Shown: positions 5,944-8,840 of the stretch, piece by piece | Position numbering within the stretch: the stretch's first letter is position 1 | How the letters are laid out: each line of letters begins with the position of its first letter | Assembly: GCA_042216675.1 (NCBI GenBank) | Contig: JBDGTS010000045.1 | Location: 1-16,102, forward strand | Source of the DNA: Halobacteriaceae archaeon | GTDB taxonomy: Archaea > Halobacteriota > Halobacteria > Halobacteriales > Halobacteriaceae | DNA length: 16,102 nucleotides | Direction of reading: 5' to 3' | Position numbers and translations under genes: made by a program | The notes under the pieces: model-generated | Told to the model about the DNA's origin: nothing | Databases searched by the model: none | Seen by the model: the letters and a program-made list of their open reading frames with translations, nothing else

Positions 5944-5990
5944 CGCTTAAGCGGACTGCTACGCGTCGGCGGAATGTGGGTCACTTTTGG
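5944..5990. promoter_or_regulatory. Divergent promoters for the hypothetical-trmJ operon (-) and folP (+)
   Basis: Palindromic CGCTTAAGCG (5944-5953) sits at TATA distance from ATG 5921; TTTTGG (5985-5990) ends 23 nt before ATG 6014. Confidence 0.5.
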
Positions 5991-6013
5991 GGCTGGCCCC
6001 CTCGACGGCGTGC

Positions 6014-7135
6014 ATGCAGAACGTCTCCGCCGGCGGCCTCGGCATCGGCGACGGGTACCCGCCCCGGATAATGGGCGTCCTGAACGTCTCGGAGGAGTCC
6101 CCCTACGACCCCTCGGTGTTCGACGACCCCGCCGAGGCGGCCGCGTACGTCGACCGCGAACTCGTCGACGAGGGCGCCGACATCGTGGACGTGGGCCTCG
6201 AATCCGCGAACAAGCGCTTCGAGGTGCTGTCGGCCGACGAGGAACTCGACCGCCTCCAGACGGCCATCGAGACGGTGGACCGCGTCGGGGGCGACGCCGT
6301 GTTCTCCATCGAGACGCGCTACCACGAGGTGGCCGAGGCGGCCCTCGACGCGAACTTCGACATGGTGAACGACATCTGTGGCTTCGCCGACCCCGAGATG
6401 CCCGCCGTCTGCGAGTCCCGCGACGCCGCCGTCGTGAAGATGGCGAGTCCGCGGGACCTCGAACGCCCCGGCGCCGTGGAGGACGTGGACGACATCTACG
6501 ACGCCCTCGAACGGAACGGCCTCACGGAGAAGACGATTCTCGACCCCGCGTTCGGCGGGTGGTCCGAGGCGAAGACCCTCGCCGACGACAGGGAGACGTT
6601 CCGGCGACTCCGCGAATTTCGGGCGCTCGACCGGCCCTTGCTCGTCTCCATCAACCGCAAGAACTTCCTCCGCGACCTCGCCGACCGGTCGACGGAGGAG
6701 GCGCTCCCCGTCAGCCTCGCGGCGACGTCGATGGCCGTCGAGCGCGGCGCGCACGTCATCAGAACCCACGACGTGGCCGAAACGCGCGACGCCGCCATCA
6801 TCGGTGACGCGTTCGCCCCGGACCTCTCGTCCAGTGACTGCGTCCACGAACTCGACGTGACCAGCGCCGCGGAACTCCGCCGTCACATCGTCGCCGTCGG
6901 CGGGGACAGGCGCCGCGCGCCGGAGGGGGTCTCCCGCGCGTTCCGCATCGAGGACGTCGCCGAGGAGGAACTCACGCACCTCGCGACGGCGGGCACCCGC
7001 GCCGGCGTCGTGGTGGAGGGTGGCCCCGACGAAGTCGTTCTCGCGGGGTCCGAGGGGGCGCTCCGATCCTTCGCCAATCGCGTGACGGACCGGGTGGAAC
7101 GGGTGTCTGACGCGGTGCGCGATACCCTGCCCTAA
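6014..7135 (+). CDS. folP: Dihydropteroate synthase (archaeal stand-alone type) with about 105-aa C-terminal extension
   Basis: IMGVLNVSEES, GADIVDVGLES, SIET, MVNDICG, ILDPAFG, SINRKNF, IRTHDV pterin-binding TIM-barrel motifs; adjacent to mptE. Start ATG 6014. Confidence 0.9.
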   Translation: MQNVSAGGLGIGDGYPPRIMGVLNVSEESPYDPSVFDDPAEAAAYVDRELVDEGADIVDVGLESANKRFEVLSADEELDRLQTAIETVDRVGGDAVFSIETRYHEVAEAALDANFDMVNDICGFADPEMPAVCESRDAAVVKMASPRDLERPGAVEDVDDIYDALERNGLTEKTILDPAFGGWSEAKTLADDRETFRRLREFRALDRPLLVSINRKNFLRDLADRSTEEALPVSLAATSMAVERGAHVIRTHDVAETRDAAIIGDAFAPDLSSSDCVHELDVTSAAELRRHIVAVGGDRRRAPEGVSRAFRIEDVAEEELTHLATAGTRAGVVVEGGPDEVVLAGSEGALRSFANRVTDRVERVSDAVRDTLP

Positions 7136-7168
7136 CAAGAAGACTTATGCCGAACCCCCAATACGAAC

Positions 7169-7242
7169 CGATTGGAGGTCGGCCGGGAGCACGGGTAGGG
7201 GTACGCGTTCGCTCCCGTCCGACACGAATCGACGGCTTCTAC
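7169..7242 (+). ncRNA. Putative structured RNA (5' leader of mptE or independent sRNA)
   Basis: GTCGG-C-CGGGAGC (7178-7190) pairs with GCTCCCG-T-CCGAC (7211-7223); outer CGATT/AATCG pairing; apical GGGTAGGGGTAC; TATA-like TTATGC at 7145-7150 preceded by purine-rich AAGAAGA. Confidence 0.5.
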
Positions 7243-7268
7243 GTGCGTCACGTCACATAGCATCAGCC

Positions 7269-7943
7269 ATGGACTTCGAGACGTGGGAGCCGGTGTACGA
7301 ACGGATTCTCGCCGACTTCGGCTACGACAGGGCCGCCGACGAGGCGGCCAGAGACGTGTTGGCCGACCTGACCGGCCCGTTCGACCGGCAGCGCCTCGAC
7401 TTCGAGGGACAGACGGTGGCCGTCGTCGGCGCGGGACCGTCGCTCCGGGCCTCGCTGGGCCGCGTGGGGGAGGCGGACCGGGTGGTGGCCGCCTCCACCG
7501 CCGCGCGGGTGTTGCGCGAGGTGGGCATCCACATCGACCTGATGGTCACTGACCTCGACGGACATCCGCCGACGGCGCGAGAACTGACTGCGGCCGGCAC
7601 GCCCGTCGCGGTCCACGCGCACGGCGACAACGCCGACGCCCTGCGGCGCCACGTCCCGACGTTCGAAGAGCCGAACGTGTTGCCGACGACGCAGGCTGAA
7701 CCCCGACCGCCGGTGTGCAACTTCGGCGGCTTCACGGACGGGGACCGCGCGGCGTTCACGGCGGACGCCCTCGGTGCCGAGTCGCTCACGTTTCCCGGGT
7801 GGGACCTCGACGACCCCTCGGCGAGCCAACTGAAGCGCCGGAAACTCCAGTGGGCGGCGCGCCTACTGGCGTGGCTCGAACGTCGGCGTAGCGAGTCTTT
7901 TGCGGTTCTCGACGGGCGCCGGGCGGACCTCGAACCGCTGTGA
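7269..7943 (+). CDS. mptE: 6-hydroxymethyl-7,8-dihydropterin pyrophosphokinase (MptE/DUF115 family)
   Basis: WEPVYERILADFGYDRAADE, VVGAGPSL, MVTDLDG, VHAHGDN, NFGGFTDGDRAAF, KRRKLQWA; located next to folP. Confidence 0.92.
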   Translation: MDFETWEPVYERILADFGYDRAADEAARDVLADLTGPFDRQRLDFEGQTVAVVGAGPSLRASLGRVGEADRVVAASTAARVLREVGIHIDLMVTDLDGHPPTARELTAAGTPVAVHAHGDNADALRRHVPTFEEPNVLPTTQAEPRPPVCNFGGFTDGDRAAFTADALGAESLTFPGWDLDDPSASQLKRRKLQWAARLLAWLERRRSESFAVLDGRRADLEPL

Positions 7944-7985: not shown

Positions 7986-8840
7986 ATGCAGGTGCCACGT
8001 CCCCGACGCGGCGCGCGTGCGGCCCGGTCAGCGAGTCAGTCGGTGTACGCGACGACCATCGACGTGCTGTTCACGGGCGTCGCCGTCGTCGTCCCCCTCG
8101 TCATCACCGTCTACGTGCTGAAGGCGGCCTACGACTTCCTCGTGGACACGATCGACCCGTTCGTGCGCCTCGTCAACTACGTCCTCCCGAGCGTCGGCCT
8201 TGCCGACCTGCCACTCGTCGGCGGCCTCCTCGTGTGGCTGTTCGACCTCCCGGGCCTCTCGCTCGTGAGCCAGTTCGCCTCGCTGTTGGTGATGCTCGGC
8301 GTCATCGGTTTCGTCGGCATCCTCGCACGGAACCGCTACGGCGAGCATCTCATCGAGTCGTTCGAGGGGGCAGTGATGGCCGTGCCCGGCATCGGGAGCG
8401 TCTACAAGAGTTTCCGGCGGATGAGTGACGTGATGATGGAGAGCGACGCGAGCAACTTTCAGGACGTGAAACTCGTGGAGTTCCCGTACCGCGACGTGTA
8501 CGTCATCGGCTTCGTGACGAACGACACGCCCCCCGCTGTCGAGGAGGCGGCAGGCGAGGAGGAGATGCAGACGCTGTTCTTGCCGCTGGCGCCGAACCCG
8601 TTCATGGGCGGCCACCTCACGAACGTCCCGACGGACCGCATCCTCGACGTGGACATGACCGTCGAAGAGGGGGTGCGGACCATCATCACCACCGGTATCG
8701 CGACGCCGCAGGGCGACGGCGACGAGGAGATGGCGGAGCTCGGCGTCGACGACTTGCCGACGGTGGAGTCGCTCGAGGAGCTAGTCGAACGGGAGCGAGA
8801 GCGCGTCCGCAAGTGGGAGGAGCGCCGCCACGAGGAGTAG
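7986..8840 (+). CDS. DUF502 family membrane protein
   Basis: TGVAVVVPLVITVYVL, VPGIGSVYKSFRR, LVEFP...IGFVT, LFLPLAPNPFMGG, MTVEEGVRTIITTG. Confidence 0.85.
   Translation: MQVPRPRRGARAARSASQSVYATTIDVLFTGVAVVVPLVITVYVLKAAYDFLVDTIDPFVRLVNYVLPSVGLADLPLVGGLLVWLFDLPGLSLVSQFASLLVMLGVIGFVGILARNRYGEHLIESFEGAVMAVPGIGSVYKSFRRMSDVMMESDASNFQDVKLVEFPYRDVYVIGFVTNDTPPAVEEAAGEEEMQTLFLPLAPNPFMGGHLTNVPTDRILDVDMTVEEGVRTIITTGIATPQGDGDEEMAELGVDDLPTVESLEELVERERERVRKWEERRHEE

Follow-up and report, generated by a model that had tools for sequence, protein, structure and literature searches.

The 133-nucleotide (nt) spacer between folP and mptE (positions 7136 to 7268) in a 16,102-nt stretch of DNA from a Halobacteriaceae archaeon (assembly GCA_042216675.1, contig JBDGTS010000045.1; the whole stretch is called the window below) contains a conserved structured RNA. 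This RNA is a covarying stem-loop with an almost invariant apical loop, and its place at the head of the mptE transcript is nearly obligate. It is apparently an undescribed, class-wide, cis-acting, and riboswitch-like leader RNA of mptE. Our preferred reading, which we consider probable, is that the leader regulates mptE in cis, with the effector left open.

An initial annotation of the window, made from the sequence alone, had pointed to this spacer and its length. The features that it picked out there (i.e., a stem, an inner helix, the apex GGGTAGGGGTAC, a CTTCTAC tract, and the promoter-like box AAGAAGACTTATGC at 7137 to 7150) all recur at the same positions in our reading of the sequence. 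Twelve of the 13 stem positions (7178 to 7190 with 7211 to 7223) are paired. A single C.U mismatch (7183/7218) lies between a lower helix (7178 to 7182 with 7219 to 7223) and an upper helix (7184 to 7190 with 7211 to 7217); the inner helix joins ACG (7191 to 7193) to CGU (7206 to 7208), and the apex spans 7193 to 7204. Folded alone, the segment from 7174 to 7227 reaches -30.6 kcal/mol (z = -3.1; 1 of 200 shuffled sequences was equally good), and the entire spacer (folded as 136 nt) gives nothing out of the ordinary (z = -1.5 on the plus strand and -2.4 on the minus strand). The comparative evidence for the hairpin is far stronger than its folding energy.

This comparative evidence comes from the loci of MptE relatives and from further loci obtained by a DNA search of relatives. 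The same arrangement was found upstream of mptE in 31 of the 37 loci in which MptE is at least 50% identical, and it consists, in order, of GAGAAAACTTATRCC, about 25 variable bases, UGGAAG, the hairpin, and the loop CGGGUAGGGGUAC (the six loci without it are L019, L042, L043, L044, L046, and L108). The hairpin arms differ among genera yet remain complementary, and the stem sequence drifts freely while the loop stays fixed. In the alignment of 31 sequences, loop columns G64, G65, A67, and G68 to G71 are invariant, columns G63, T66, T72, and A73 are at least 90% conserved, and the core GGnAGGGG is identical throughout (31/31). Exact GGGTAGGGGTAC is present in 63 of the 70 leaders listed.

The initial annotation had suggested looking for an invariant apex and a covarying stem in orthologous spacers; the stem covaries and the apex is essentially invariant. 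Compensatory double changes occur in 11 of the 14 predicted pairs (RNAalifold on a MAFFT alignment of 28 core sequences). Across 71 model-aligned copies (52 distinct), 95.3% of the cells are paired, 11 of the 14 pairs again contain double changes, and 74 cells are compensatory. None of 500 shuffles matched any of the covariation values, and structures slid by 1 to 3 columns yielded only 22 to 54% pairing. A model-fitted alignment leans towards the structure; the independent MAFFT alignment agrees with it. A covarying fold with invariant unpaired bases is the combination expected of a riboswitch-type RNA.

With a covariance model of the RNA (R1; 61 positions, 14 pairs), the window scores 59.3 bits (E = 1e-11). 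Its own 2.15-Mb assembly has no second strong match; the sole other match at E ≤ 1 reaches 17.2 bits (E = 0.73). Among the sampled Halobacteria, 138 of 151 genomes (50 of 58 genera) match R1 at E ≤ 0.01, nearly always with exactly one strong match per genome, and none of the 132 genomes from outside the order in a phylum-wide sample match at E ≤ 0.001. The RNA family is restricted to Halobacteria among the genomes sampled.

The hairpin is preceded by a strongly conserved promoter, as the initial annotation had recognized in calling a transcription factor B recognition element (BRE) and TATA box. Bases G7139, A7140, A7141, C7144, T7145, T7146, A7147, T7148, and C7151 are invariant (31/31), and a GAGAAAACTTAT-like BRE/TATA box is present in all 65 distinct sequences. 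The spacing from CTTAT to the first base of the stem is fixed in all of these 65 sequences at 34 nt (48 sequences) or 35 nt (17 sequences). A nearly invariant A (alignment column A34) lies midway. Haloarchaeal promoters have a BRE, a TATA box centred near -27, and a W at -10/-11. On the basis of this geometry, transcription would start on the UG/G of UGGAAG, 4 to 6 nt before the stem (around 7172 to 7174 in the window), which places a conserved BRE/TATA box at a constant spacing from the transcript 5' end, as in haloarchaeal basal promoters. The start near 7174 that had been proposed initially is indirectly supported by this fixed spacing and by RNA sequencing (RNA-seq) reads at the equivalent place in a relative.

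These reads come from public RNA-seq data for a relative (locus L165; G057:C1:2744101-2747160), in which TTAT lies at 1473 to 1476, the stem at 1507 to 1550, and the mptE ATG at 1584. In run X24 (stranded raw reads), 196 reads have the same orientation as folP and mptE. The depth is 34 to 55 over the 3' end of folP, where 11 molecules end at 1483, and 2.1 at 1494 to 1509, directly before the predicted start. It is then 14.8, 30, and 38 across the hairpin region (1510 to 1573), 26.6 and 20.9 across the junction (1574 to 1605), and 40 to 60 further into mptE. Reads running into the adapter end at 1570 and 1576 (five reads each). In run X9, a 55-nt contig with a depth of 126 meets the adapter at 1558 (i.e., 8 nt after the stem), and the contig that continues into mptE has a depth of 46; X24 is a single raw-read run with few reads, and contigs are not reliable for ends or levels. 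We read these data as a new transcript that starts at the predicted place, part of which ends or is cut 8 to 26 nt after the hairpin and accumulates, while about half continues into mptE.

A separate feature of this locus concerns positions 1478 to 1509 (approximately 7150 to 7177 in the window). The folP transcripts stop sharply at 1483, within the downstream promoter and just past its TATA box (11 molecules, and 7 reads that run into the adapter), at a place with no T-run or hairpin. This could reflect termination by collision with an initiation complex on the strong promoter.

The inverted repeat stands directly after folP, and it might be regarded as a feature of the DNA itself (i.e., a palindromic factor site, a terminator of folP, or a repeat element), but we consider this very improbable. 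Complementarity is kept while the stem varies, which is a signature of RNA, and R1 is strand specific (approximately 70 bits in the sense orientation versus approximately 24 bits in the antisense orientation). Furthermore, the folP transcripts of L165 end before the hairpin, no U-run abuts the stem in the window, and the hairpin is a single-copy element in its own genome. An intrinsic folP terminator was rejected in particular: no T-run abuts 7223, and the folP transcripts of L165 end 24 nt before the stem.

A passive 5'-terminal stem-loop, which would protect the transcript from exonucleases or mark a processing site without sensing anything, agrees with a hairpin that begins 4 to 6 nt from the 5' end of the transcript and with the accumulation of stable leader fragments. 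Bacterial stabilizer hairpins of the ompA type are likewise stem-loops located a few nucleotides from the 5' end of the mRNA. However, such hairpins need no specific loop, whereas the loop is the most conserved part of the mptE leader and remains nearly invariant while the stem drifts; we consider a purely passive role improbable.

The RNA is tightly linked to mptE. In all of the 41 loci that were collected by the RNA model alone (L115 to L144 and L154 to L164), mptE is on the same strand and starts 47 to 275 nt after the loop. In the first 30 of these loci, folP is the upstream neighbour in 22 and is absent from that place in 8. Since the element is present upstream of mptE where folP is not a neighbour, its assignment to mptE rather than to folP is supported. 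The element lies in the 5' untranslated leader, on the same strand, of a gene belonging to one pathway, which is a riboswitch-type location. The leader serves one gene family only (i.e., mptE), so there is no regulon-wide support.

The pattern of loss leads in the same direction. All 13 sampled genomes without the RNA retain mptE, which abuts an upstream open reading frame (ORF). The folP stop codon lies -11 to +5 nt from the mptE start in 10 of these genomes and 45 nt away in 1, and in the other 2 (genus g26) a different ORF of 380 amino acids (aa) ends 6 nt before mptE. These genomes keep no copy of the RNA elsewhere. The loss of the promoter coincides with that of the hairpin, and both occur in just those genomes in which mptE is expressed as an operon's distal gene. 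Because mptE abuts an upstream ORF in all 13, the RNA appears to be dispensable where mptE needs no promoter of its own. This fits a cis-acting expression element and not a housekeeping trans-acting RNA.

Some of the RNA-less loci have further features. In L183, L185, L187, and L193 (mptE start at 1501), folP and mptE overlap in a 4-nt GTGATG/ATGA junction (gap, -1), and such a 4-nt overlap is typical of translational coupling. In the two g26 loci (L194 and L195), mptE is coupled instead to the 380-aa protein, which has a signal or membrane segment.

The coordinates of the features in the window are listed in Table 1. The folP stop codon (TAA, 7133 to 7135) is directly followed by the promoter. 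A tRNA search returned none. On the 3' side of mptE are genes for a DUF502 membrane protein (7986 to 8840) and a DNA photolyase (PF00875 and PF03441; 8813 to 10255). Photolyases commonly use a folate-derived antenna cofactor, and the nearness of this gene to mptE may or may not carry meaning.

Table 1. Features of the folP-mptE region in the window
Feature	Positions	Strand	Basis or remark
folP (dihydropteroate synthase)	5987-7135	+	TIGR01496, 170 bits (cutoff, 162.6); PF00809, 2.3e-37
BRE/TATA promoter AAGAAGACTTATGCC of the hairpin transcript	7137-7151	+	Invariant bases and fixed spacing to the stem
Inferred transcription start, UG/G of UUGGAGG	7172-7174	+	Promoter geometry; 4-6 nt before the stem
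Leader hairpin	7178-7223	+	Minimum free energy fold, covariation, covariance-model match at 7172-7234
Near-invariant apical loop GGGUAGGGGUAC, 12 nt	7193-7204	+	Alignment of 31 sequences; presumed recognition site
Pyrimidine/AT-rich tract CTTCTAC	7236-7242	+	-33 to -27 from the ATG
Conserved motif TAGCATCAGCC (family consensus, nAGCGACAGCY)	7258-7268	+	Just before the ATG; A at -10, G at -9
mptE (archaeal 6-hydroxymethyl-dihydropterin diphosphokinase family)	7269-7943	+	PF01973 (MptE-like), 1.5e-16

Several finer claims of the initial annotation about the fold did not extend to the family. The inner ACG/CGU helix is present in the window and forms at least two pairs in a fixed register in 30 of the 52 distinct relatives. 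The proposed outer helix (CGATT/AATCG) has its 5' arm (7168 to 7172) upstream of the inferred transcription start and is not supported. Since the three pairs of the GUA/UAC mini-helix within the loop hardly vary, this helix cannot be judged by covariation. A pseudoknot between GUAGGGG in the loop and CUUCUAC downstream had also been proposed, and with it two competing folds; neither is supported. When the loop was paired with the following 45 nt in 66 distinct leaders (RNAduplex energies; 200 dinucleotide shuffles per leader), the duplexes were no better than those of the shuffled sequences (mean z = +0.35; f ≤ 0.05 in 2 of 66), although a contact of 3 to 4 bp could escape this test. Three lineages with GGGCAGGGG loops (C for U) keep UUAUC-type tails and so show no compensation.

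The near-invariant UG at the inferred start also forms an NUG codon, and positions 7172 to 7198 read TTG GAG GTC GGC CGG GAG CAC GGG TAG. A conserved leader peptide running from this codon to the UAG of the loop (an 8-codon micro-ORF) is in frame only in the window and several genera. It was ruled out: indels in the stem break the frame, and the first codon is CCG, TCG, or CTG in other relatives. Because the frame is not kept across the family, we take the micro-ORF as a probable by-product of the structure.

The region between the hairpin and mptE bears on how mptE is transcribed. The tail is variable and carries a pyrimidine/AT-rich tract (TTTATC, TTCTAC, ATTAC, and similar), and the nAGCGACAGCY motif lies 17 to 37 nt after the stem. 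In the 30 sequences with 38 to 48 nt between the stem and the ATG, the AT content peaks at 57 to 73% at -32 to -28, and A at -10 (26/30) and G at -9 (27/30) are common. For the CTTCTAC tract of the window there are two readings, a weak proximal TATA box and a U-rich region of pausing or of 3' ends. The geometry would also suit a second promoter close to mptE. Three observations count against such a promoter as a general feature: the hairpin and the ATG are only 16 to 29 nt apart in several lineages (e.g., L162, L039, L126, and the g34 loci), too short a distance to accommodate one; Natronomonas-like loci have a T-rich tract at -21 to -14; and the nAGCGACAGCY motif stays near the hairpin where the ATG has moved 60 to 130 nt off. 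The adapter reads of L165 end right after both AG dinucleotides of this motif (five reads per place), which hints at a 3'-end or processing site.

Two pairings that might have tied the hairpin or the tail to the translation start were also considered. A candidate mini-hairpin sequestering the AUG (7256 to 7271, CAUAGC-AUCA-GCCAUG; UAGC-GACA-GCUA in relatives) displays no covariation, and its A at -10 does not change with the base at -1 (U or C). An alternative pairing, between the 3' arm and sequence further downstream, was rejected; it occurs in single sequences only (CCGUC/GACGG in the window, and L145) and is not conserved. As a separate peculiarity, seven loci of genus g35 (L129, L133, L134, L136 to L138, and L141) have an insertion of approximately 90 nt between the AGCGACAGC motif and the mptE ATG, and this insert holds further AGTGACAGCG-like motif repeats. 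Three of them (L133, L137, and L141) have ACG where other genera have ATG.

The loop is also found outside the mptE leader. A second, shorter match occurs in a few Haloferacaceae-type genera (g34, L145 to L148; g37, L151 and L152; g73, L203) and in genome G167 (L150). The hits of this second family lie at 2001 to 2043 in each of L145 to L148 and at 1501 to 1529 in L203. These free-standing copies are approximately 85 to 95 nt long and have their own TATA box (ACACAAGAYTTTTA or GTTTATATA), a longer outer stem, and an identical apical CGGGUAGGGGUAC(A/U)(C/U)G. The outer stem is followed by a run of T3 to T5 in the g34, g37, and g73 copies, and by only GTTATC in L150. None of the copies are adjacent to mptE, and those of g34 converge on a gene for a YdjM-family membrane protein (PF04307). 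They look like small RNAs (sRNAs) built around the same loop.

One locus (L149; G124:C29:833868-837926; hit at 2001 to 2059 on the minus strand) contains a full extra copy of the leader that is not followed by mptE. It has a GGGAAAACTTATGCC promoter of the mptE type, a fully covaried stem, and the same loop. An ORF for a small, hydrophobic membrane protein (133 aa; no Pfam match) starts approximately 170 nt downstream, and a TBP gene is divergent upstream. The copy is near a contig end and may belong to a mobile or plasmid region. Together, the extra copies show the loop as a putative portable recognition module. Because the neighbours of the copies give no folate link, the odds for a strictly pterin-sensing riboswitch are lowered, and room is left for a protein effector.

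The initial annotation had left a choice between a cis-regulatory leader and an independent sRNA, and each part holds to some extent: L165 has both a short species and read-through, and separate copies exist in some genera. The stronger form of the second proposal is that the hairpin with a short tail is an independent trans-acting sRNA of approximately 55 to 75 nt, that mptE is transcribed without a leader from the proximal TATA-like tract, and that the two are neighbours by synteny or shared promoter space. The discrete, abundant short RNA of L165 (end at 1558, and adapter-read ends at 1570 and 1576), the dip in depth at 1574 to 1605 before the subsequent rise, the AT-rich peak with A(-10)/G(-9) before the ATG in the 30 sequences, and the free-standing copies with their own promoter and T-run terminator in g34, g37, and g73, together with the copy in G167, all accord with this proposal. 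Nonetheless, the RNA is lost in the 13 genomes with mptE in an upstream operon and is kept nowhere else in them, mptE follows the RNA in all 41 loci found by the model, and the hairpin-ATG distance of 16 to 29 nt in several lineages is difficult to reconcile with a promoter in between. In addition, the depth of 21 to 27 at the junction, approximately half of that over the hairpin, indicates that read-through exists. An independent sRNA is, in our judgment, unlikely.

The preferred reading, a cis-regulatory leader, leaves two kinds of effector to be weighed, and the probabilities that we attach to the readings overlap in that the question of the effector cuts across the cis-regulatory leader itself. 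The first is a small molecule. A true metabolite riboswitch would constitute a putative Halobacteria-specific class in which the loop GGGUAGGGGUAC senses a pterin, a folate, or a metabolite derived from guanine and thereby determines how much terminated leader is made relative to full-length mptE transcript; we regard this as possible, if on the doubtful side. Alternatively, the loop may make use of the molar K+ in the haloarchaeal cytoplasm via G-tract chemistry.

The second is a protein. The loop might be an operator that binds a regulator or a pathway enzyme controlling the stability, processing, or translation of mptE mRNA, in which case the free-standing copies would be decoys. The conserved bases belong to an exposed apical loop instead of a junction or pocket; separate sRNAs present this loop on another scaffold, which is comparable to the decoy sRNAs that some protein regulators have; and no platform of alternative folds was found. 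Against these points, no rRNA or tRNA site with the loop sequence was found that could be mimicked, nor one in other Rfam RNAs with which the loop could pair: a search of four genomes with a 13-mer and at most one mismatch gave chance-level matches, similar to those of a reversed-pattern control, and none in Rfam RNA. No candidate protein emerged either. We put the operator forward tentatively; it is compatible with a cis-regulatory leader and not exclusive of it.

Comparison with known RNAs yielded no counterpart, in agreement with the absence of terminator, H/ACA, and C/D signatures noted initially. Rfam 15, whose families include THF-I, THF-II/folE, ZTP, Moco, preQ1, snoRNA, and sRNA families, gave no matches in the whole window at the gathering score, none at E ≤ 10 in 7050 to 7350, and nothing at the element in the loci of five relatives at E ≤ 1; the initial annotation had named such a match as something that would remove novelty. 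H/ACA guides have a pocket of at least 5 nt per side, a kink-turn (K-turn) or K-loop, and an ACA box after the stem, and C/D guides have RUGAUGA and CUGA boxes. An H/ACA guide was rejected on the basis of the internal loop, which is a single mismatch, and of the bases after the stem, which vary (CCCACA, CUCAAU, CGAGCG, and others). A C/D guide was rejected as well (i.e., no conserved box C or D consensus and no Rfam snoRNA match), as was a K-turn reading.

The closest known kind is the small hairpin riboswitch, i.e., THF-II/folE, preQ1-I, and guanidine-II. THF-II (the folE motif; RF03111) is a bacterial hairpin of approximately 50 to 60 nt with conserved bases in internal loops and proven ligand binding. 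Like THF-II, the RNA upstream of mptE is a lone hairpin of approximately 50 to 60 nt that precedes a pterin/folate gene in its 5' leader, and it, too, combines a covarying stem with a few invariant bases. The mptE leader differs in its archaeal distribution and in having the conserved bases in the apical loop, and the THF-II model does not match it (E ≤ 10 in the window; E ≤ 1 in relatives). The preQ1-I and guanidine-II (mini-ykkC) riboswitches are similar in being very small aptamers with conserved sequence in a hairpin loop, and the preQ1 ligand is related to guanine. However, preQ1-I needs a loop-tail pseudoknot, the analogue of which in the mptE leader is not above chance, and guanidine-II has two hairpins instead of one. 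Neither family has a match in the window at the gathering score or in 7050 to 7350 at E ≤ 10. The riboswitch classes reported in archaea (TPP, fluoride/crcB, and others) also occur in bacteria; they share with the mptE leader the condition of a cis-acting structured leader in an archaeon, whereas the mptE leader was found in Halobacteria only (0 of 132 genomes elsewhere in the phylum sample).

Among the papers listed by our literature searches, we found no description of an mptE leader RNA, and supplementary tables of haloarchaeal transcription starts and 3' ends may list it as an unnamed 5' untranslated region or sRNA. The available part of one article (PMC8305020; Haloferax, sRNA, dihydropteroate) has no RNA content, and the available parts of two 2026 bioRxiv preprints on genomic language models do not mention Halobacteria, mptE, pterin, or folate.

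Taken as a mechanism, the cis-regulatory leader would operate as follows. The spacer would be a complete expression unit for mptE, with a strong conserved promoter and a 5' leader of approximately 95 nt, the first 50 nt of which fold into the stem-loop with the almost invariant 12-nt GGGUAGGGGUAC. The leader would act in cis on mptE, and a factor recognizing the loop would set the share of transcripts that stop or are cut 8 to 26 nt after the hairpin versus those that continue into mptE. With 3' ends falling so soon after the hairpin, the leader seems more likely to control elongation, termination, or processing than access of the ribosome. We infer a regulatory role for the leader and a sensor function for its loop, as well as the nature of the signal; candidate factors are a small molecule from the area of pterins/folates or guanine nucleotides, or a protein. 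In effect, the pterin branch of folate synthesis would be controlled in a manner resembling a riboswitch or an attenuator.

Several points weigh against this mechanism. In approximately half of the lineages, the tract after the hairpin is laid out like a second promoter from which a leaderless mptE could be transcribed (AT peak at -32 to -28 and A at -10), and the rise in depth inside mptE (L165, run X24) is compatible with such a proximal start. No conserved alternative pairing or expression platform was found, and the minimum free energy folds of the tails share no second hairpin. The loop module can work outside the mptE leader, as suggested by free-standing copies whose neighbours have no obvious link to folate. 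Finally, the RNA-seq support consists of 196 reads of one run plus contigs, from the relative L165.

To our knowledge, archaea have very few riboswitches or other structured RNAs that regulate in cis, and we know of no account of how haloarchaea regulate folate synthesis. Here, a compact RNA of approximately 50 nt with textbook covariation precedes the gene for a pterin-branch enzyme in most of the sampled haloarchaeal genera. It has a defined promoter, and the relative that provides the transcript evidence has many public RNA-seq runs. Together, these properties make the long-standing gap directly testable with ordinary experiments. The motif is suitable for inclusion in Rfam and would help the annotation of haloarchaeal genomes. 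If the effector is a protein, the leader would represent a new archaeal RNA-protein regulatory pair, perhaps with a paralogous sRNA family serving as a decoy. If the RNA is a metabolite riboswitch, its class would be one that has been seen in archaea alone to date, and it would provide the first known control point of archaeal folate synthesis; the free-standing copies would then be orphan aptamers of this class that act in trans.

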